Positions 2,852 through 13,656 of a stretch of 64,000 nucleotides of DNA are shown piece after piece; the stretch's first letter is position 1, and the number at the start of each line of letters is the position of its first letter. Under the pieces are notes generated by a model. The model worked only from the letters and a program-made list of their open reading frames with translations. It was not told the origin of the DNA and did no database searches. The stretch covers positions 44,559 through 108,558 of the forward strand of contig JADGAU010000001.1 of NCBI GenBank assembly GCA_015231865.1, in the 5' to 3' direction. The DNA comes from Gammaproteobacteria bacterium. Its GTDB lineage: Bacteria > Pseudomonadota > Gammaproteobacteria > GRL18. The translations under genes and the position numbers were made by a program.

Positions 2852-3803
2852 CAGACCAGAAATCATAAAAATTAAACCAGTTATATGGGTAATCAATACA
2901 GTGTTGTTCAATGGTATTGACATATTGTTGCATTAATTTTTGTATTTGTTCTTCTCTATTATTTCTATGTAACTCAACTTTTTCAGAAAGTAAATGGAAA
3001 TAGATATCATATTTATTAGCTTCTCGATGAAGAGCAAAACAAAGTATAACAGGTGCCTTTAGTAGGTGGGCTACCAACAAAGGACCCGATGGAAAACTGA
3101 TAGATTTACCCATAAATTGACATTCAACTGTGCGATTATCATGCTCTACTCGATCAGCTAGCATCCCAATTACTGTCCCATTTAAGTACGCAGCCTGTAC
3201 CTTTATCATTGAATCAGGCTGTCCAACTTCAATGACCTCATTTTTTAAATCGGGATTTAATTTTTCAAATGCGATATTAATTTTCTGATGGTCATTGTTG
3301 TACATCAAGGCTTTTACTTTAACATTTTCATGTTGTTGCGCCAAAGCTCGTAAGGCATCAAAATTTCCATGGTGAGATCCCAATAAAACAACGCCTTGCT
3401 TACTTTGTATTTGATTTAATAAAATTTCTTCATTATATAAAGTGATATCAAATGCTTTTGATTTCCCGGTTAAAAAATAAACCCGATCTAATAACATATT
3501 TGAGAACGCATAATAATGCCTGAAAATATCGATAATATTTGGACTGCTCTTACCGGCATAAGTAAAGTTTCTCTGCAAATACGCCCTAGAATAACGCCTG
3601 GTTTTTGAACTAATGACAAAATAGAAAACGATTGGATATAAAAATAATCTACCTACACGACGTCCTAAATGTAGAATAATCCAAATAATTAGATTGATCA
3701 TAAAAGAACTGCCACGATCTTCCGTTTCTTTCCATTGCTGCTCTGAACTATTTGTACGTTTTTTTGTGCGTTTTTGTTCCCCTATTTTCATTTTAACTGA
3801 CAA
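2835..3803 (-). CDS. Lysophospholipid/lipid A-type acyltransferase (LpxL/HtrB-like)
   Basis: N-terminal TM, HX4D motif in LLGSHHGNFD, about 320 aa. The start could instead be the ATG at 3791. Confidence 0.75.
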   Translation of the reverse strand: MSVKMKIGEQKRTKKRTNSSEQQWKETEDRGSSFMINLIIWIILHLGRRVGRLFLYPIVFYFVISSKTRRYSRAYLQRNFTYAGKSSPNIIDIFRHYYAFSNMLLDRVYFLTGKSKAFDITLYNEEILLNQIQSKQGVVLLGSHHGNFDALRALAQQHENVKVKALMYNNDHQKINIAFEKLNPDLKNEVIEVGQPDSMIKVQAAYLNGTVIGMLADRVEHDNRTVECQFMGKSISFPSGPLLVAHLLKAPVILCFALHREANKYDIYFHLLSEKVELHRNNREEQIQKLMQQYVNTIEQHCIDYPYNWFNFYDFWSDEKAV

Positions 3804-4104
3804 GAAAAGTGCCCTGGCTAATTATAATGGACGAATTTGATTCAATAACTTTAAAGTTAATTTTTTGATTATTTACTGAGTGATAGGATAGTTGGCAGTT
3901 AGTATCAGGTCTGAGCATATTTTGGAACTTGACCTGCTGATATACCTTGATATCAGACTTCATTTTTTCCATCCAATACCGACTAACCTGATCAAGAATC
4001 ACCACACCAGGAACAACTGGGTTATCTGGAAAATGTCCTTCTAAAGAAGGATGATTTGCAGCTATAGTAAATTCGGTTTGTAATATCATTCTCATCTTCG
4101 ACAT
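3793..4104 (-). CDS. Hotdog-fold (FabZ/ApeI-like) thioester dehydratase
   Basis: HPSLEGHFPDNPVVPGVVILDQ motif, about 100 aa, locus context. Confidence 0.75.
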   Translation of the reverse strand: MSKMRMILQTEFTIAANHPSLEGHFPDNPVVPGVVILDQVSRYWMEKMKSDIKVYQQVKFQNMLRPDTNCQLSYHSVNNQKINFKVIESNSSIIISQGTFLVS

Positions 4105-4119
4105 GTTTTTACCACAAAA

Positions 4120-5547
4120 TTAAGATGAACGACAAATTGATAAGAGTGTTTTTAATTCAGATTTAGGTAGTTTTCCTGTCGCATTTCTAGGCAAATTATC
4201 TATATAATAAATATTTTTTGGCAAAAAAACCGCTTCAATTTTAGTTTTCAAATAGTCTTTTACTTTCCTATTCATTTTCTTTTGATTTGATAAATCATTG
4301 CCTTCCTTAACAACAGCAAATGCAATAAGTCTACTTAAATCACCATTTTTTTCCTCATAATAACAAGCATCACTAAATTGCTCAAATGATTGTAAATGAT
4401 GATTTAAATAAGCCATTGATGTTCTTTTCCCTGCTAAATTAATTATATCTTCCTTTCTCCCTTCTAAGTGAAAATTATGAGCATCTATTAACTTAATATT
4501 ATCATGTAATAAAAATTGCTTAATTGAACGATTTGTCAACACCCTAACATCATTATCCATTGGTTCTAAAGAAATATCCTCTAAGGTCTGCCAGTGTAAA
4601 TCAGCTTGTTTACTATTCCTGTTTCGATAGGCCATACTACCAACTTCTGTACAACCATAAATTTCCAGGATTGATGCCTGGTAAAAATTAGAACACTGCT
4701 TAACTAATGACTTATCAAGAAATGCCGTAGCTGATATAAATTGTTTCAAATGTGGTAAGAGTACCTGGTTACTCACACAGGCTTTTAAGTGTAAGGGGGT
4801 TGTAATGATAGTTATTTGAGTATGATAGTCTCTTAAAGCTGCTAACTCCTGTAAACAATTTGACACATCCTGAGGGAAAAATGGTTTATCAGAATGCATT
4901 AATAAGCCATGTTGAAATGCAAATAATATACTCCACTCAAGACCATACATATGCTGTGCTGGCACAGTAGCCACCAATGCCTGTAAGGTTTTAGTTTTTT
5001 CTGTTTGTCTTGTTGCTTCTAATAATTTATCGGTTAAATAATTAGCCGCTAGCAGATCGCCTAATTGTTTATAATAAGGTTTAGGGAAACCGGTACTTCC
5101 TGATGTAAAAATTATTGCCAGTTCTTTTTTAAGGTCTAAAGATGAATAGTATTTTTGTAATAAAGATTCAGCAATATCATAATTTTTAACTTCAGAATTT
5201 AAGAACTCTATACAATGCTCTGAGATTTTATAAGTAATAAAATCTGCCTCTATATCCTCATCAGATAGTGCTAAAATTGATGTATAGTTATCACTTAAAT
5301 ATTCAAAAATAAATTCAGAGATTGTCGAAGGGAATAAACTTAGATTATTTTGGCGTATTCCCATTAACAAACCAACGACAAAGAAAAACCTTTCTTCATA
5401 TAAATTCAATAAAAATTTATGTTTAGGAATATTTTTAAGCAATGATTCCACTAGCAGTATCAATTCACCAAGCGTAACTAAATTTCCGCGAAAATAAATT
5501 ACCGGTTCATTAACACTGCCATAATTAAATAAATTAATTTTATTCAT
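4120..5547 (-). CDS. AMP-dependent ligase (aryl-acid:ACP ligase candidate, XanA2/ApeH-like)
   Basis: AMP-binding motif IIFTSGSTGFPKP; C-terminal ATGKLPK; adjacent ACP. Confidence 0.8.
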   Translation of the reverse strand: MNKINLFNYGSVNEPVIYFRGNLVTLGELILLVESLLKNIPKHKFLLNLYEERFFFVVGLLMGIRQNNLSLFPSTISEFIFEYLSDNYTSILALSDEDIEADFITYKISEHCIEFLNSEVKNYDIAESLLQKYYSSLDLKKELAIIFTSGSTGFPKPYYKQLGDLLAANYLTDKLLEATRQTEKTKTLQALVATVPAQHMYGLEWSILFAFQHGLLMHSDKPFFPQDVSNCLQELAALRDYHTQITIITTPLHLKACVSNQVLLPHLKQFISATAFLDKSLVKQCSNFYQASILEIYGCTEVGSMAYRNRNSKQADLHWQTLEDISLEPMDNDVRVLTNRSIKQFLLHDNIKLIDAHNFHLEGRKEDIINLAGKRTSMAYLNHHLQSFEQFSDACYYEEKNGDLSRLIAFAVVKEGNDLSNQKKMNRKVKDYLKTKIEAVFLPKNIYYIDNLPRNATGKLPKSELKTLLSICRSS

Positions 5548-5577
5548 GAAATCAACTAAAAATAAATCAATACCTTT

Positions 5578-6189
5578 TTATTGCAATAGCTTACGTTGAT
5601 CGATTGTCATCAATTGTCTAGTAAATTCTATCGGTGATTCCCAACGCTTAAACCAGAATAAACGGAAAACCCATTCTGCAAATAAAAGTGTAAGCAATAA
5701 GAGATAGTTAACAAAATTTGTAAATAAAGACCAAACTTCTAACGATGCCCAAAAAGTCAAAAAAAGAGTATTAACTAATAATAAAGCAATAAAAACTACC
5801 CAAACCCAGGTTAGAATATCAGTATATCGCATTTCTGCTGGCTCGTTTTCTTGCTTTGTCAGTTGATAAAAGCGAGTAATTAATGGTGTTCTATTCGGCA
5901 ATACTGAACGAACAAATGGATACCAGATGATTGATATCATCAATATTGGCGGTAGATAAATGATTGAGTGGTCCAGGTAATACCATGAAAAAACAGCAAT
6001 AGACAATAGTGCTATAAATATCAGTAGTTTAGTTTTTTTTTGCTGACCATCAGCTAAGTCGGGCCGGGCAATTATAAAGTAGAAAAAAGGAAGCAAACAG
6101 GCAACTAAAAAAGGAACATGGTAACTAACACTTAAGTGAACTAATAAAGGATAGAAGAAAAACTGAAAACGAGCAATGAAATCTAACAT
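5578..6189 (-). CDS. Integral membrane protein of the aryl-polyene locus
   Basis: About 6 hydrophobic helices; sits between the ACP and ligase genes as in APE loci. Confidence 0.6.
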   Translation of the reverse strand: MLDFIARFQFFFYPLLVHLSVSYHVPFLVACLLPFFYFIIARPDLADGQQKKTKLLIFIALLSIAVFSWYYLDHSIIYLPPILMISIIWYPFVRSVLPNRTPLITRFYQLTKQENEPAEMRYTDILTWVWVVFIALLLVNTLFLTFWASLEVWSLFTNFVNYLLLLTLLFAEWVFRLFWFKRWESPIEFTRQLMTIDQRKLLQ

Positions 6190-6214
6190 TGCTTTATATC
6201 ATAGACATAACTAA

Positions 6215-6475
6215 TCACTTCGTTTTATTTTCTTCAATATGTTTACTTAGCGAATTTAGAGAACGAAAAATCTCCCTGTTTTTACTATCATCAGAGCGTA
6301 ATTGAAAACCAAAAGTCTGTGTTATTGCCATTGATAGTTCAAGTGCATCAATAGAATCAAGTCCTAATCCTTCTCCGAATAAGTAATCTTCAGGATCAAT
6401 GTCAATAACTTCTATATCTAAATTCAACGTATCAATAATCAATTGTGCTGTTTGTTGTTGTAATTCACTATTCAT
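6215..6475 (-). CDS. Acyl carrier protein
   Basis: 86 aa, acidic; phosphopantetheine site context GLGLDSIDALEL. Confidence 0.85.
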   Translation of the reverse strand: MNSELQQQTAQLIIDTLNLDIEVIDIDPEDYLFGEGLGLDSIDALELSMAITQTFGFQLRSDDSKNREIFRSLNSLSKHIEENKTK

Positions 6476-6588
6476 AATATTGCTTGAGATTAAATTCTAT
6501 TTTCTAATTAAGAGCATAATTTGTTATTATAGCAATAATTTTTACAATCTTTTATCAAATTCTGCTAAAAAATCAAATTTACCTTAAT

Positions 6589-7638
6589 ATGCCCGCAAAA
6601 CTTCCTTTTCAAATTGATTATTTAAGCCCATCTCAGCTAGATAAGTTTAAATTATCTTTAAAAGAAAATCAGCAATCACCGCTGTTGCTGATTGCACATA
6701 AACCCATAGATAATAAAGATTTTGACATTAAGGACTCATCTCTTATTAGGGTTAATTCTGGTCTAAAAACTATTTCTCAAGACAATGTGAGTTGCTATGA
6801 ATTATGGTCTGCCCCAGGAAAGTGGTTATTTAATAAAGAAATGAGTAAAACCCACAGTGAATTTAATTATGCTTACAATGATGAGTTTTTTATTGCCGGC
6901 ATTTCTGTAAATCTTTCCCACAAGCGAACGCTACAAGACCTTAGCCAACTGGTTTATCAAGAAATATTAACGTTAATAAAAAAATATAATAAAACAAATA
7001 TATTAAGAATGTGGAATTATTTCCCGAAAATTAATCAAATCGATAATAATCTGGAACGTTATCAACAGTTTTGTGTTGGTCGTTATTGTGCTTTTGATAA
7101 TATAAGTAACTACCCCGCTGCCAGCGCCGTTGGGAATTTTAGTTCATCATTAGTGGTAACCTTTATCGCATCTAAAAATAAGCCCGTATTTATAGAAAAC
7201 CCTGAACAAATTAGTGCATATGAATACCCCGAAGTTTATTCGCCTAAGAGCCCGTCATTCTCAAGAGCGTGTTTCAATTCAGGAGATAAGGACTCACAAC
7301 TTTTTATTTCCGGAACAGCTAGTATTACTGGTCATCAAAGCCGTTATACCAATGATATTTTAGGGCAAACACGGCTTACTCTGAATAATTTAGATACCCT
7401 AATTAAACATACAAATAGCAGCATTTTAAAAAAAGATAAATTTAAACTATTAATGTCTGATAAAAAAATATCTGACAAAGGCTCTCCTGCTATAAAAGTT
7501 TATGTTAGAAACCCCGAACAACAACCAAAAATAGCCGCCATCCTTGAAAAGTATATACAAAAAGAATCTATTTGTTATTTACAGGCTGATATTTGCCGAC
7601 AGGAACTCGATATAGAAATTGAATTATTTTATCCATGA
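6589..7638 (+). CDS. FkbO/Hyg5/XanB2-type chorismatase (hydroxybenzoate-forming) candidate
   Basis: C-terminal RidA/YjgF-like region with FISGTASITGHQS, typical of this family. Divergent from the ACP/ligase operon, as xanB2 is in xanthomonadin loci. Confidence 0.6.
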   Translation: MPAKLPFQIDYLSPSQLDKFKLSLKENQQSPLLLIAHKPIDNKDFDIKDSSLIRVNSGLKTISQDNVSCYELWSAPGKWLFNKEMSKTHSEFNYAYNDEFFIAGISVNLSHKRTLQDLSQLVYQEILTLIKKYNKTNILRMWNYFPKINQIDNNLERYQQFCVGRYCAFDNISNYPAASAVGNFSSSLVVTFIASKNKPVFIENPEQISAYEYPEVYSPKSPSFSRACFNSGDKDSQLFISGTASITGHQSRYTNDILGQTRLTLNNLDTLIKHTNSSILKKDKFKLLMSDKKISDKGSPAIKVYVRNPEQQPKIAAILEKYIQKESICYLQADICRQELDIEIELFYP

Positions 7639-9176
7639 ACATTTTCTATCGATTTATGACGATACTGTAAGGCTTCACTGATATGCTCATTATTAATTCC
7701 AACTTTCGCATTATACTCTTCATCCAGATCAGCTATCGTCTTAGCTACTCGCAAAATTCTATGAAAGGCTCTGGCCGATAATTTTAGGTTGGAAACCGCT
7801 TTATCAAGTAATTGTTTATTGTTTTCAGATAAGGGACAATATATTTCAAGTTCTTTGTTTGTTAACTGCGAATTTGCCTTGCCGGCACGTTTAATTTGTT
7901 TTTGATGGGCGGATATAACTTTTTGCTGAATAGTTTTTGAACTTTCTGAATAAGTAACAGAATTTGATGGTTTATTTTCCTGTTTTAAATTAAATAACTC
8001 ATCCTTAGGAACACTGGAAAGTTTTATAAACAAATCAATTCTGTCCAATAATGGCCCGGATAATTTACTCTGATAACGTAAAACTTGTTCAGAAGTACAT
8101 CGACAATGGTGCTGGCTATCTCCAAGATAACCACATGGACATGGGTTCATTGCTGCAACCAATTGAAAGTTTGCTGGGTAAGACGTCTGTCTCGCAGCCC
8201 TGGAAATATGAATAACTCCTGACTCCAGTGGTTCCCGTAACACTTCCAGCACATGTCGGCTAAATTCTGGCAATTCATCTAAAAACAGCACACCATTATG
8301 CGCCAAACTGATTTCACCCGGTTTGGGATAACTGCCACCGCCAACCAATGCAACGGCAGAAGCCGTATGATGTGGACTTCTAAAGGGGCGAACTGACCAA
8401 TTATTGACATTCACTTGTTCGCCATTAATTGAACGAATCGATGCTGTCATCATTGCTTGTTGTTCCGTCATTTCAGGCAAAATATCAGGTATTCTTGATG
8501 CCAACATTGTCTTTCCTGATCCGGGTGAGCCACTCATCAAAATGGAATGATTACCTGCAGCGGCTATGGTAAGTGCTCTTTTTGCATGCTGCTGACCTCG
8601 CACATCGGAAAAACATAATGATGTGCTACTGGCAATTACTGCAAACTTTTCTGGCTTTGCAAGTTTTTTCATTCCATTTAAAAAAGCCGTAACTTCCAAT
8701 AAATGTTCTGCATATAGAATATTTAGTCCATGGATTAAGCTTGCTTCCGGCACATTATTTTTAGGAATAATAATGGTTTTTTTTGTGGCTTTTGCCTGAA
8801 CAGCAGCTGCGATAATACCTTTAACAGGTCTTAGTTCACCGCTTAATGCTAATTCCCCATAAAATTCATATTGGTGTAAATCGCATTCTCTAATTTGTTT
8901 AGAAGCACTTAAAATTCCTATAGCAATTGCCAAATCAAAGCGACTGCTTTCTTTAGGTAAATCTGCCGGCGCCAGGTTAATCGTAATTCGACGAATAGGG
9001 AATTCAAATTCGCAATTAGATATTGCACCACGAACACGATCTTTGCTTTCTTTAACGGCTGTTTCAGCCAACCCAACCATGCTTATACAAGGCAACCCAT
9101 TAGCAAGGTGGACTTCAATAAAAACTTCAGCAGCTTCCAGTTCGGCATTACGACTTTTAATGATTGAGAGAGACAT
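7629..9176 (-). CDS. comM: YifB/ComM Mg-chelatase-like AAA+ protein
   Basis: Lon-protease-like N-domain, Walker A GSPGSGKTMLA, Walker B VLFLDELPEF, CPCG zinc motif; 515 aa. Confidence 0.9.
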   Translation of the reverse strand: MSLSIIKSRNAELEAAEVFIEVHLANGLPCISMVGLAETAVKESKDRVRGAISNCEFEFPIRRITINLAPADLPKESSRFDLAIAIGILSASKQIRECDLHQYEFYGELALSGELRPVKGIIAAAVQAKATKKTIIIPKNNVPEASLIHGLNILYAEHLLEVTAFLNGMKKLAKPEKFAVIASSTSLCFSDVRGQQHAKRALTIAAAGNHSILMSGSPGSGKTMLASRIPDILPEMTEQQAMMTASIRSINGEQVNVNNWSVRPFRSPHHTASAVALVGGGSYPKPGEISLAHNGVLFLDELPEFSRHVLEVLREPLESGVIHISRAARQTSYPANFQLVAAMNPCPCGYLGDSQHHCRCTSEQVLRYQSKLSGPLLDRIDLFIKLSSVPKDELFNLKQENKPSNSVTYSESSKTIQQKVISAHQKQIKRAGKANSQLTNKELEIYCPLSENNKQLLDKAVSNLKLSARAFHRILRVAKTIADLDEEYNAKVGINNEHISEALQYRHKSIENVHG

Positions 9177-9928: not shown

Positions 9929-10060
9929 TGTAGTCCGTGCTTAACCAATACATTCGATTATAGGAACAATATTAATCTATGTAAAATTGCGGTATTTTAT
10001 ATAATATAACTATTATCTGTTATAAACTATTATCCTCAATAATCAAAATTTGGAATTGAT

Positions 10061-11290
10061 ATGAATAAAACAATAAAACTTATATTTGCTTCATCTCTTG
10101 CATTAACTTTCAATATTGCCCATTCATCTGCGGATTTTTTCGATTTTAATTCAACTTACTGGCAAAACTCAACAGCCAACTATGAAACCACTAATAATGG
10201 AGATGGAACCTTTACTCAAGTTGGTGAAGCTAAACTTTTTTCCTCAACAATTACAGCAAAACTGATAACGACTCAAGAGGGTGAATATTCCGACAACGGC
10301 ACTGATAAATTAAGTATAACTTTCTCATCTGCAGGCAGAGAATCAATTGCTTTTGAAAACCTTGGCAAAACTGATGCGGAAAACTGGCTTGATGACAATG
10401 CAGATAAAGTAGCGATTCTTTTATTTGCCAGCAATTTAGGTACTTCTTTAGCAGGTGAAGACTCTGCAACAACTGAAGCTAATGGTGTCATTGATACACT
10501 AATTTTCACACCAACAAATAAACAGGGTTCTAAAGAAAAAATTAAAAAAGATGGCCTTACGGTTACAGCTAGTAGAAGTTTAGCAAGTGGTGCACTTTTT
10601 TACTCTAAATTTGATAATGATGGAGATAAAGGAACTCGTACCGGTATTACTATAGGATATGATACAGACATTAGCGAGAACTTAACTGTGAAATTTCTTT
10701 TACCTTATAATCAAGTCGAAATTGATGATAGTGTCAATACCAGTTCTCAAGTATTATCCCCCTCTTTTGCGTTTAGTTACTTAGTTTCAGACACTGACGA
10801 CAGTCAAGTTAAAATTGGTGCAAATATACAACTTACGGCTACTTATAGTGAAACTGATTTAACAGATCTCGGTTATTTAAGATATAGTTCAACTATTTTC
10901 GGGTCATATCGTTACTTTGCTTCAGACAATATGACGATTACTACTGGTGCGACTTTGGGTTATGGTGAGTACACAGCTCCCGGCGTAGATGATCCGACTA
11001 TTACTAAGATTTTTGAATCAATGGGAACTGATATTGTTTTAGGCTTTGGTGGCTTAATTGAATACGATTTTGATGATAGCAAAGGTATGGATTTTCAAAT
11101 ATCCGGATCACACAATTTTAACTCAACACTAATTGATGGAAAAGACTATATATCATTTGGACCAACGTTCAGATATAGCGTCATGGATACTTTTAATTTA
11201 AACATAGGATACAAACATACTGAAAAACTTAGTAGTGATACAGATTATAGTTCAGATACTATTATGTTAAATGCTCTTTATCAGTTTTGA
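10061..11290 (+). CDS. Outer-membrane beta-barrel protein, autotransporter-like (short passenger plus barrel)
   Basis: Signal peptide ending AHS/AD; about 150-aa N/T/D-rich region; amphipathic beta-strand pattern; C-terminal LNALYQF with terminal Phe. Confidence 0.6.
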   Translation: MNKTIKLIFASSLALTFNIAHSSADFFDFNSTYWQNSTANYETTNNGDGTFTQVGEAKLFSSTITAKLITTQEGEYSDNGTDKLSITFSSAGRESIAFENLGKTDAENWLDDNADKVAILLFASNLGTSLAGEDSATTEANGVIDTLIFTPTNKQGSKEKIKKDGLTVTASRSLASGALFYSKFDNDGDKGTRTGITIGYDTDISENLTVKFLLPYNQVEIDDSVNTSSQVLSPSFAFSYLVSDTDDSQVKIGANIQLTATYSETDLTDLGYLRYSSTIFGSYRYFASDNMTITTGATLGYGEYTAPGVDDPTITKIFESMGTDIVLGFGGLIEYDFDDSKGMDFQISGSHNFNSTLIDGKDYISFGPTFRYSVMDTFNLNIGYKHTEKLSSDTDYSSDTIMLNALYQF

Positions 11291-11305
11291 TATCTGATCA
11301 ATATT

Positions 11306-11932
11306 ATGTATAAATTTGTTTTAACTTTTTTTGCCTTATTTCTTATCACTCCACCCATCTGTGCTAATACTCGGGACACTATATATGTTTTCGGATATCT
11401 AAATTCTGTCGACAATAAGACCTGGCAAAATAGCCATGTAGGTTTTGGTGTAAAAAATCAGTTAAAACAAATTTTATTTGATAGCAATCAATTTACTATT
11501 AAGGAAGAAAAAGAGCTAAAAAACCGTGAGCAAACTTCTAATGAGAGCTGGATGTTGTCAAAAGAAAGTGTAACTATCGATAATCTCAAAATGATGTCGA
11601 AAAAAAATGATATTAATATTATCTTTTGGGTTGAAGTAGTCAGTTTTGGAAAGTTAAACAGCAAACTATTTATTGGCCCTTTTTCATCTAGCAGCAAGCG
11701 TACCAATCTGGTCGCCAAGGTATGCATGTTTTTATCAAGTTCACATGAAATCACTTGCGAATTAGGAGTTGGCAAATCACGTAGAAAATCAAGTTCTTTT
11801 TTATTTACACTCAAAGATCATCGACAGGGAAGAAAAGTTTTTGATGGTTCAATGGTGGGTAAAATTTCCAATAAAGCGATAAGTGACTCTGCCACAAAAT
11901 TACTGGAAAAACTGGAAGATAAACTAAGATGA
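11306..11932 (+). CDS. Secreted CsgG-like domain protein
   Basis: Signal peptide. The module VFGYLNS..HVGFGVKNQLKQILFDSNQFTIKEEKE is paralogous to the N-domain of the next gene and fits the CsgG/HfaB-type pattern. No canonical lipobox (PPIC-A). Confidence 0.45.
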   Translation: MYKFVLTFFALFLITPPICANTRDTIYVFGYLNSVDNKTWQNSHVGFGVKNQLKQILFDSNQFTIKEEKELKNREQTSNESWMLSKESVTIDNLKMMSKKNDINIIFWVEVVSFGKLNSKLFIGPFSSSSKRTNLVAKVCMFLSSSHEITCELGVGKSRRKSSSFLFTLKDHRQGRKVFDGSMVGKISNKAISDSATKLLEKLEDKLR

Positions 11933-11965
11933 CTTCCTAAGTCAGACTACTTGTAAGGGCAAATT

Positions 11966-13573
11966 ATGATTTATTCTAAATTATTAAATTCATTGATCAT
12001 TATCTTTATTCTATTGCTAGCTTCATGTGCAACAGAAAAAACAACAATAGAAGACATTAAAACACCATTAGACACGAAAAAAGAAGCACAAAAATCGCTT
12101 GCCTATCCTGTTTATTATGGCCTGCCAAGGAAAGTAATGGTTTTCCCATGGAATATTTCTAAAGTTGATTTAGACAAATATCCTCACTTCAGAAATTTAC
12201 AAATTGGTTTTGGTATTAGTAACCGATTACTCGATGAATTATTTCAAAGTGGTCAGTTTGAACTAATTGAAGAAAAACAAGCTGTAATATCCAGGATGTT
12301 GCAGCAAATGCAACAATGTACAACCGGTCTGTGCAATAATAATTATGCACCAATGCAGAAACTGCCAAGTCCTACATATATTGTATACCCAGAGGTATAC
12401 CATGTTGGTGTAGAAAAGAATGTATCGATCAAAGGTTTATCATCCGAAGCGAAGTTAACAACTGAAATAGGCGTACAAATTAATTTTGTCGATGTAAAGT
12501 CAGGTACTACACGCTCATTAGGTAGTGCTATTGGCAGCCATCCAAACTCACAAAAATCGACAATATTATCAAATCCAAAAATTGATTTTAGCCAATCTGC
12601 ATTAGGAAAAGCCGCTGAAAAAGCTATAAAAATGGCGCTAATCAAATCAATAAAAAACTTACCACCGGAATCTCAAAAAAGCTCACCGCCAATAAGGCCT
12701 GATAATAGTAATAATTCTGCAACTATTGCAGTAACAGACTTGCCTGGTTCAATTACAAATATTGCGAATAGAGAATCCCCAAAAGACAATTCAATTATAA
12801 AAGCCATTAAAACTGCTGAGAAATCATCTACCAAGAAAGATATTAGCACTTTTATGGATAAAAATAACTTTCATGCTTTTATTATTGGTAATAACCAATA
12901 CCAACATGTTACTAAATTAGAAACTGCTGTTAACGATGCCAATGAAATAGCGAGTGTATTGAAAAATGATTACGGATTTAAAACTGAAGTACTTATTGAT
13001 GCCACTAGACAAGAAATCATTGCCAAATTTGATAGTTTAAGAAAAAAATTAAAGAAAAAAGATAAATTATTAATTTATTATGCTGGGCATGGATATTACG
13101 ATGAATCTGCAGATCGTGGTTATTGGCTTCCGGTCAATTCAACAACAGACAATACCGCCGAATGGATTTCAAATATTGATATAACCGATAAGGTCAGATC
13201 GATTCAGGCAGAACATGTCATTGTAATCTCGGATAGTTGTTATTCTGGAACACTCACCAGAGGGCTTTATATTGATTTGCGTCCCACTGAAACATTATCT
13301 GAATATCACTATAGAATGATGACTAAACCTGCTAGAACTGTTATGACTTCAGGTGGTTTAGAACCAGTTTCTGATGGCGGAAGAGGTAACCACTCAGTTT
13401 TTGCAGGTGCCTTTTTAGACTCATTAAAAGCTAACAAAAAGGCTATTGATGGAATGGCTTTATTTAATCAAGTTAAAACGCAAGTAACAGCCTCTGCCGA
13501 ACAGACACCTGAATATTCAGATATTAAAAGAGCTGGTCACAAGGGTGGAGATTTTATTTTTATTAAAAGATAA
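11966..13573 (+). CDS. Lipoprotein with N-terminal CsgG-like domain and C-terminal caspase (peptidase C14) domain
   Basis: Lipobox LLLAS-C21. CsgG-like pattern at aa about 45-232 (IGFGISNRLLDELFQSGQFELIEEKQ). P/S/N linker. Caspase fold at aa about 301-535 with LLIYYAGHG (H375) and VIVISDSCYSG (C425). Confidence 0.7.
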   Translation: MIYSKLLNSLIIIFILLLASCATEKTTIEDIKTPLDTKKEAQKSLAYPVYYGLPRKVMVFPWNISKVDLDKYPHFRNLQIGFGISNRLLDELFQSGQFELIEEKQAVISRMLQQMQQCTTGLCNNNYAPMQKLPSPTYIVYPEVYHVGVEKNVSIKGLSSEAKLTTEIGVQINFVDVKSGTTRSLGSAIGSHPNSQKSTILSNPKIDFSQSALGKAAEKAIKMALIKSIKNLPPESQKSSPPIRPDNSNNSATIAVTDLPGSITNIANRESPKDNSIIKAIKTAEKSSTKKDISTFMDKNNFHAFIIGNNQYQHVTKLETAVNDANEIASVLKNDYGFKTEVLIDATRQEIIAKFDSLRKKLKKKDKLLIYYAGHGYYDESADRGYWLPVNSTTDNTAEWISNIDITDKVRSIQAEHVIVISDSCYSGTLTRGLYIDLRPTETLSEYHYRMMTKPARTVMTSGGLEPVSDGGRGNHSVFAGAFLDSLKANKKAIDGMALFNQVKTQVTASAEQTPEYSDIKRAGHKGGDFIFIKR

Positions 13574-13612
13574 AGAAATTAATATACTAGAACCTCATTG
13601 CGTCAGAGTTTG

Positions 13613-13636
13613 AAAACTCTCTAACTGAGAGTTTTT
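13613..13636. terminator. Bidirectional hairpin terminator between the caspase-lipoprotein gene and pyrE
   Basis: aaaactctc / taact / gagagtttt forms a 9-bp stem flanked by A and T runs. A second small hairpin lies just upstream (agagtt tgaa aactct). Confidence 0.6.
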
Positions 13637-13656
13637 ATTAACAAAAGACTTTAATT

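Follow-up and report, generated by a model that had tools for sequence, protein, structure and literature searches.

A three-gene cassette with a lipidated caspase-family protease

We analysed a 64-kb stretch of contig JADGAU010000001.1 from a gammaproteobacterial metagenome-assembled genome (GCA_015231865.1), referred to below as the window, in which three co-directional open reading frames (ORFs), here called genes 1 to 3, form a compact cassette (Table 1). Gene 3 encodes a predicted lipoprotein in which a divergent CsgG-family module is joined by a linker to a caspase-like protease domain of the C14 family, gene 2 a soluble paralogue of that module, and gene 1 a putative outer-membrane barrel protein. 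In the NCBI annotation, gene 3 is a 'caspase family protein' and genes 1 and 2 are hypothetical. An earlier reading of the window, made from its letters and ORFs (the sequence-only reading), had described the same three genes, and their arrangement is exactly as it gave it, with spacers of 15 nt between genes 1 and 2 and of 33 nt between genes 2 and 3; the AT-rich region that it had placed upstream of gene 1 was found as well.

Table 1. Features of the cassette and its borders. Positions are those of the window; aa positions are those of the encoded protein.
Feature	Positions	Strand	Remarks
AT-rich divergent intergenic region 5' of gene 1, presumed promoter	9929-10060		132 nt, 24% G+C
Gene 1, ORF	10061-11290	+	409 aa
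Gene 1, signal peptide (aa 1-23)	10061-10129	+	MNKTIKLIFASSLALTFNIAHSS; assigned by eye, no predictor
Gene 1, Lys/Arg-rich linker (aa 153-164)	10517-10552	+	NKQGSKEKIKKD; between N-domain and barrel
Gene 1, predicted beta-barrel region (aa 165-409)	10553-11287	+	~245 aa
Gene 2, ORF; predicted soluble periplasmic CsgG-like protein	11306-11932	+	208 aa; no lipobox; Cys pair C140, C151
Gene 3, ORF; predicted lipoprotein with CsgG-like module, flexible linker and C14 caspase domain	11966-13573	+	535 aa
Gene 3, predicted lipoprotein signal peptide	11966-12028	+	lipobox LLLAS-C21, Ala at +2
Gene 3, CsgG-family module (aa 45-235)	12098-12670	+	AF2, Foldseek, hhalign
Gene 3, non-conserved P/S/N/K-rich linker (aa 236-302)	12671-12871	+	
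Gene 3, Peptidase_C14 domain, caspase/paracaspase-like (aa 303-518)	12872-13519	+	Pfam E 4.9e-28
Gene 3, catalytic His375 codon	13088-13090	+	in YYAGHG; codon checked
Gene 3, catalytic Cys425 codon	13238-13240	+	in SDSCYSG; codon checked
Terminator-like hairpin and U-run	13608-13642	+	-15.2 kcal/mol, z -3.4 vs shuffles

Gene 3 carries a C14 domain with an intact catalytic dyad

The Pfam model of the C14 peptidases (PF00656) matched gene 3 with 98.8 bits against a cut-off of 21.4, and the match covered profile positions 3-224 of 233. When a profile of nine full-length homologues was compared with the paracaspase domain of MALT1 (E 2.4e-15), the profile segment LiYYAGHgy was aligned with LLYYAGHGY of MALT1, and vvaDsCfs with FLLDMCRK; in MALT1 these two motifs contain His415 and Cys464. 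This alignment therefore places His375 and Cys425 at catalytic positions, so that both the C14 domain and the His-Cys dyad that the sequence-only reading had named were borne out. Asp423 and Cys425 make up a D-x-C motif like that of MALT1 and the metacaspases, with Asp423 at the place of the acidic residue in Arg-specific relatives, and this suggests that the enzyme might cut after Arg or Lys.

At 50-55% identity, the protease domain of gene 3 resembles thousands of bacterial C14 domains, which occur in proteins with accessory modules such as PG_binding_1, SH3_3, PEGA, Sel1, ankyrin, PDZ and others. Among the best 120 caspase-domain matches, the two catalytic motifs were found in 119-120 and a hydrophobic N-terminus in 102; most of this clade is therefore likely to be secreted. 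Judged by these comparisons, the C14 clade of gene 3 is a large, predominantly secreted and uncharacterised group with apparently interchangeable localisation modules, and we know of no function for it. The family of EACC1-associated caspases was considered and rejected, because gene 3 scored 73.4 bits with the NCBIfam model caspase_w_EACC1 (NF047832), well under its cut-off of 140. PADLOC assigned gene 3 to its generic 'caspase' model only (E 2.3e-14), and it had no match for genes 1 and 2.

Gene 2 and the N-terminal module of gene 3 are CsgG-like paralogues

The sequence-only reading had seen a common N-terminal module in genes 2 and 3. In blastp searches, gene 2 matched gene-3 homologues with E-values of 1e-5 to 2e-10 over 170-198 aa, which confirms this observation and indicates that gene 2 and aa 45-235 of gene 3 (the N-module) are paralogous. 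Genes 1 and 2 had no match above threshold in Pfam, NCBIfam or PADLOC, and the Pfam CsgG model matched two of 14 members of the module family, with a best E-value of 0.034. Because an N-module sequence profile gave chance matches only among PDB sequences, a fold search was needed to reveal the relationship with CsgG. A model of gene 3 aa 22-240, built with AlphaFold2 (AF2) from 18 sequences, reached a predicted local distance difference test score (pLDDT) of 81 and a predicted template-modelling score (pTM) of 0.73. With this model, the best 25 PDB matches in Foldseek were all CsgG (E 1.5e-8, TM-score 0.40-0.51); weaker matches were to CT253, Cj1090c, GNA1162, the LPHT flagellar ring, PelC, LptE and HpaA.

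Two further lines of evidence agreed with the fold. An exhaustive profile search recovered 274 representative relatives of the module, as compared with the 3-8 relatives of gene 2 or the N-module that a word-indexed homologue search had returned, and a Pfam scan of 102 of these 274 identified CsgG in 58 (best E 7e-72), LpoB in 10 and FlgT_M in five, with FlgO also among the matches. Profile-profile comparison by hhalign of the gene-3 module with an alignment headed by E. coli CsgG (a sequence identical to PDB 3X2R) gave a probability of 99.94% and an E-value of 2e-36 over 190 columns, figures to be read with the fact that the target alignment contains bridging sequences recovered by the module family's own profile. 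The homology spans CsgG residues 39-238, including the hairpin strands. With fold, profile-profile and transitive Pfam evidence in agreement, we conclude that the N-module is homologous to CsgG and a divergent member of its family, as the sequence-only reading had proposed from its pattern, rather than a module of some unrelated family. Membership of the curli system was rejected: the hairpins are short, and Pfam detected no CsgA/curlin, CsgE or CsgF match in the three cassette proteins.

Predicted localisation of the cassette proteins

The lipobox that had been read in gene 3, with Ala at +2, was confirmed, and its Cys is present in 11 of 11 gene-3-type homologues, with Ala or Thr as the next residue. 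No lipobox is present in gene 2 or its homologues, which carry ordinary signal peptides instead. From these signals we predict export of gene 3 and its lipidation at Cys21 and, given Ala at +2, its sorting to the outer membrane, where it would sit in the inner leaflet. The Cys pair of gene 2, two residues 11 positions apart that are invariant in 11/11 homologues, and the C118/C123 pair in a loop of the window's gene 3 would fit an oxidising compartment. The segment between module and protease varies from 41 to 86 aa and cannot be aligned between homologues, and for this reason we regard it as a flexible tether.

Gene 1 has an N-terminal domain of ~130 aa, a basic linker and a C-terminal region in which a crude alternation score marks ~11-12 amphipathic beta segments (aa 165-409). 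The N/T/D-rich stretch noted earlier was recovered (48% N/T/D/S/G in aa 24-165), as was the C-terminal LNALYQF with its aromatic last residue (F409). The label 'autotransporter-like' found no profile support and was rejected. The Autotransporter beta-domain model (PF03797) found no match at E up to 1 in gene 1 and five homologues, and what did match lay below threshold and belonged to generic barrel families, namely OMP_b-brl (E 0.002; aa 175-409), DUF3575 and OprF for gene 1, with DUF2490 in addition when the five homologues are included. A gene-1 profile had no match in the PDB. The family falls into two subfamilies; in each, the last residue is aromatic and a basic stretch occupies the same position of the alignment. 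To regard gene 1 as an outer-membrane barrel protein is reasonable on these features, and its Lys/Arg-rich linker NKQGSKEKIKKD is a candidate cleavage site.

The cassette is conserved across lineages

Homologues of gene 3 were found in about a dozen lineages, in metagenomes and metagenome-assembled genomes (MAGs). In a scan of 185,579 species representatives (GTDB), at least two loci were recovered, both in Methylococcaceae MAGs; the count is a lower bound because two strict peptide patterns were required in the scan. Immediately 5' of gene 3 there is a gene-2 homologue in 17/17 loci, often with overlapping stop and start codons. A gene-1 homologue adjoins this pair in 12 of the 13 loci where that side is visible, co-directionally in 10 and divergently in two. 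The genes that flank the cassette on the outside differ lineage by lineage. Co-occurrence of the triad, for which the sequence-only reading had suggested a neighbourhood check, is thus well supported, and the cassette is not confined to this genome.

Some loci have features of their own. At L014 (526-2108 and 6907-7338) and L015 (855-2437 and 7236-7664), genes for IS66-family and DDE_Tnp_1 (IS4-type) transposases bracket the cassette. At L005, from a Methylococcaceae MAG, the gene upstream of gene 2 encodes a Cys/Pro-rich repeat protein with QAPQVLQNGACVTPAPTC repeats, and the caspase gene is followed by a cluster (3418-8805, - strand) that includes OmpA, DUF2807 and a 527-aa DUF4384 protein; DUF4384 is a domain that often accompanies bacterial caspases. 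A plasmid search with the N-module matched no plasmid, and its only phage match was to a stand-alone CsgG-like protein. This is gp017 of Flavobacterium phage vB_FspM_immuto_2-6A (160 kb; NC_055915.1, 13731-14444; L021, 3854-4567), which is annotated as hypothetical, has 27% identity to the module (E 8e-15) and is encoded near genes for a lectin and a cohesin domain protein.

Paired CsgG-like proteins occur with and without a caspase

The soluble and the lipidated module also occur together outside the cassette. At L022, a 219-aa protein of the soluble type (432-1091) is followed by a 236-aa lipoprotein that passes the Pfam CsgG threshold (1106-1816), and there is no caspase. When 141 representative relatives were sorted into gene-2-like and gene-3N-like types, the split was 76:65. 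Moreover, single proteins of ~400 aa (P0142, P0154, P0197, P0229 and P0234) consist of a gene-2-like module followed by a gene-3N-like module. This is the order of the genes in the cassette and provides a Rosetta-stone argument that the two modules interact physically. Pairs of CsgG-like proteins without a caspase seem to be widespread and undescribed as a system, and this points to the caspase fusion as a rare elaboration of a paired soluble/lipidated CsgG-like system.

In a second set of loci (L014 5279-6817, L011 843-2402, L020 523-1983, L028 3138-4691 and L030 4209-5759), an N-module with 48% identity to that of the window is fused to a protease of a distant C14 clade. These proteases, ~30% identical to the C14 domain of the window, keep the dyad, have the caspase-like motifs FYYAGHA and LDACRDN and end in FYFIPP. 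Since the N-module is joined to two C14 clades, and since the protease domain of the window is 50-55% identical to domains in unrelated architectures, the combination has arisen by assembly or exchange on at least two occasions, and this speaks for a functional link between module and protease and for selection on their combination.

A model for an envelope protease complex, and its alternatives

Starting from what was read directly, i.e. the domain identities, the dyad, the lipobox, the paralogy and the synteny, we propose a tentative model in which assembly, activation, specificity and substrate are conjectural. The locus would encode an outer-membrane-anchored periplasmic protease complex that is activated by clustering and cuts envelope substrates after Arg or Lys; we give this reading a probability of roughly 0.45. 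Gene 3 would be tethered to the inner leaflet of the outer membrane, and gene 2 and the gene-3 module would form a hetero-oligomer beneath that membrane, probably ring-shaped like several relatives of the fold. This assembly would be associated with the gene-1 barrel protein. Oligomerisation would gather the tethered protease domains and thereby bring about an activation of the dimerisation type, as in caspases and paracaspases, and the activated protease could then act on envelope proteins at basic residues. Among possible substrates, the conserved Lys/Arg-rich linker at the junction of the N-domain and the barrel of gene 1 would be the best candidate.

Several observations weigh against this model. 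The Pfam check on CsgG that the sequence-only reading had recommended was answered in part: homology was supported by fold and hhalign, but Pfam's own model (PF03783) scored gene 3 at just 11.7 bits, below its cut-off of 20.8 (E 0.15), and did not match gene 2. The composition of the hhalign target alignment, described above, counts here too. The Arg/Lys specificity is deduced from a single motif, D-x-C. For gene 1, a single-sequence AF2 model was unusable (pLDDT 32), and at L005 a different gene stands where gene 1 would be expected, with no gene-1 homologue present.

The nearest alternative is a true CsgG-type secretion channel, in which gene 3, with or without gene 2, would form an oligomeric beta-barrel pore across the outer membrane, the tethered caspases below it would process an unfolded substrate prior to or in the course of its export, and gene 2 would serve as a periplasmic cap or adaptor like CsgE. 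Apart from the uniform CsgG identity of the best 25 fold matches and the inclusion of the hairpin strands in the homology to E. coli CsgG 39-238, such a channel is favoured by the most conserved stretch of the module, FPWNISKVDLEKYP, which aligns with the beta1/constriction-loop segment VYNIQDETGQFKPYP of CsgG and has K-(P)-Y-P in common with it. The constriction loop of E. coli CsgG includes Tyr51, Asn55 and Phe56. At this position the module has a loop of equal length, with an invariant K-Y-P as compared with K-P-Y-P; the Asn-Phe pair is not conserved. The strands of the AF2 model, 18-19 residues in length and amphipathic, are unusually long and would also suit a channel. Against it, the segment from beta3 to alpha3, which comprises the two transmembrane hairpins, measures ~71 aa in the module and ~87 aa in E. 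coli CsgG; the hairpin region is thus ~13-16 residues shorter and leaves room for one hairpin at most. The AF2 model has three long strands and lacks the TM2 return strand, the hairpin tip VEKNVSIKGLSSEAKLTTE is charged or polar and, having no aromatic residues, forms no aromatic girdle, and the C-terminal helix of E. coli CsgG is missing. Furthermore, no candidate gene for a secreted substrate is conserved in the cassette, and the fold recurs in many proteins other than pores, such as LpoB, FlgT_M and a Ser/Thr kinase with a presumed sensor domain of this type. Because the hairpin region is too short, we do not think that the gene-3 module builds a CsgG-type 36-strand channel, and a secretion channel as a whole appears unlikely to us; ring assembly by the module is plausible by analogy with its relatives, and the conserved stretch with K-(P)-Y-P speaks for it.

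A further version may also be envisaged, in which genes 2 and 3 would make a CsgG-like hetero-oligomeric ring, or a pore with one hairpin per protomer, in the outer membrane that bears a periplasmic crown of tethered caspases and activates them by proximity as it assembles. Its output would be either processing coupled to secretion or a triggered breakdown of the envelope; the gene-1 barrel would be its partner or the first protein to be cleaved. We consider this version distinctly unlikely; if true, the caspase-crowned ring would be the envelope counterpart of an apoptosome or inflammasome.

Conflict systems of bacteria often have caspase-like proteases as effectors, and the cassette could accordingly be viewed as an envelope defence or programmed-death module, in which phage or envelope damage would trigger the caspase, envelope proteins would be degraded, and the cell would be killed or arrested. 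The rare and patchy occurrence of the cassette with different flanks in each lineage, the IS66 and IS4-type transposases on either side of it in one lineage, and the generic PADLOC match are what such a module might display. Yet the window's cassette lies among housekeeping-looking genes of equal G+C content and lacks a partner of the NTPase or sensor kind, PADLOC matched neither gene 1 nor gene 2, and caspase_w_EACC1 stayed under its cut-off (73 vs 140 bits). Nor did the mobile elements searched with the N-module lend support, with no plasmid match and a stand-alone CsgG-like protein as the sole phage match, and a defence role strikes us as quite improbable. We give still less credence to the idea that gene 1 acts on its own, as a small autotransporter or a surface protein, and merely lies next to genes 2 and 3, or that the C14 domain is a non-catalytic scaffold. 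The order of parts in gene 1 (signal peptide, N-domain, barrel of ~12 amphipathic segments) is indeed autotransporter-like, and the gene is missing at one locus and divergently transcribed at two, but six gene-1 homologues gave no Pfam Autotransporter match, gene 1 adjoins the pair in 12/13 loci and across two caspase clades while the rest changes, and the dyad is kept in every homologue. These points make independence of the parts very doubtful.

The kinase referred to above, P0264 (647 aa), has a Ser/Thr protein kinase domain at aa 10-256 and a C-terminal CsgG/LpoB-like module at aa 468-635, which is presumably an extracytoplasmic sensor domain.

Relation to known systems

Gene 3 resembles CsgG (PF03783; PDB 4UV3, 4UV2 and 6L7A) in the fold, in the homology of the periplasmic domain and hairpin strands, in its lipobox and in the K-Y-P segment, which aligns to where the constriction loop begins. 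It differs in scoring below the Pfam cut-off, in the 13-16 residues that its hairpin region lacks and in the absence of the C-terminal helix, and also in bearing a C-terminal protease and having a soluble paralogue; no Pfam match to CsgA, CsgE or CsgF was obtained for the cassette. For the C14 domain, MALT1 is the closest solved relative by sequence, with the dyad aligned. The bacterial secreted C14 proteins ('orthocaspases/metacaspases') share with gene 3 the linkage of a conserved protease to a variable localisation module. A lipidated CsgG-like domain is not among the C14 accessory domains in a 2012 survey (PMC3501461). Unlike in those proteins, the module of the cassette is such a domain, and it comes with fixed partner genes.

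In PelC (with PelB), LptE (with LptD) and the flagellar H-ring proteins FlgT/FlgP/FlgO, a periplasmic or lipoprotein module works with an outer-membrane barrel protein. PelC, LptE and the LPHT ring were among the weaker fold matches of the gene-3 module (E 6e-5 to 1e-3). These proteins carry no protease, however, and the cassette has no polysaccharide, lipopolysaccharide or flagellar genes. The Fap amyloid system combines the barrel FapF, which has a periplasmic N-domain, with the cysteine protease FapD, of a family different from C14. It is similar in concept, an outer-membrane barrel with an N-terminal domain next to a periplasmic cysteine protease, but we detected no relationship in sequence (the PDB had no match for the gene-1 profile), and the cassette contains no amyloid subunit gene.

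Full-text literature searches (CsgG with caspase; orthocaspase or C14 with periplasm) retrieved no description of a CsgG-caspase architecture, in agreement with the sequence-only reading, which knew of no characterised system with it. The CsgG and C14 families are already known, and so are bacterial caspase homologues that are secreted and carry accessory domains. In the literature searched we found no account of a lipidated CsgG-like domain as the accessory module, of its obligatory partner, the soluble paralogue, of the barrel protein linked to them or of the paired CsgG-like system. Work on bacterial caspase-family proteases has dealt mainly with effectors of defence or cell death in the cytoplasm. 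The cassette provides a compact and testable case of a C14 protease predicted to be tethered by a lipid anchor, with two fixed partners and a candidate substrate alongside, and if the module forms rings, nature would here offer a case in which a scaffold drives the activation of a protease outside the cytoplasm.

Borders and surroundings of the cassette

A consensus scan of the presumed promoter region (9929-10060) found no sigma-70-like site on the + strand; such sites were on the - strand only. Downstream, the sequence-only reading had described a strong hairpin terminator. The hairpin itself is present between gene 3 and a convergent - strand gene, with UUUUUAUU directly 3' of it, but 'strong' is generous because a simple terminator scan did not list it. 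An Rfam scan of the whole window gave no family at gathering score. The G+C content of the cassette equals that of its surroundings, and the neighbouring ORFs look, by eye, like housekeeping genes. Among them, a 515-aa ORF on the - strand (7629-9176) reads by eye as a ComM/YifB-type Mg-chelatase-like ATPase, and its end is overlapped by 10 nt by a convergent 349-aa ORF (6589-7638, + strand) that has no assigned function.

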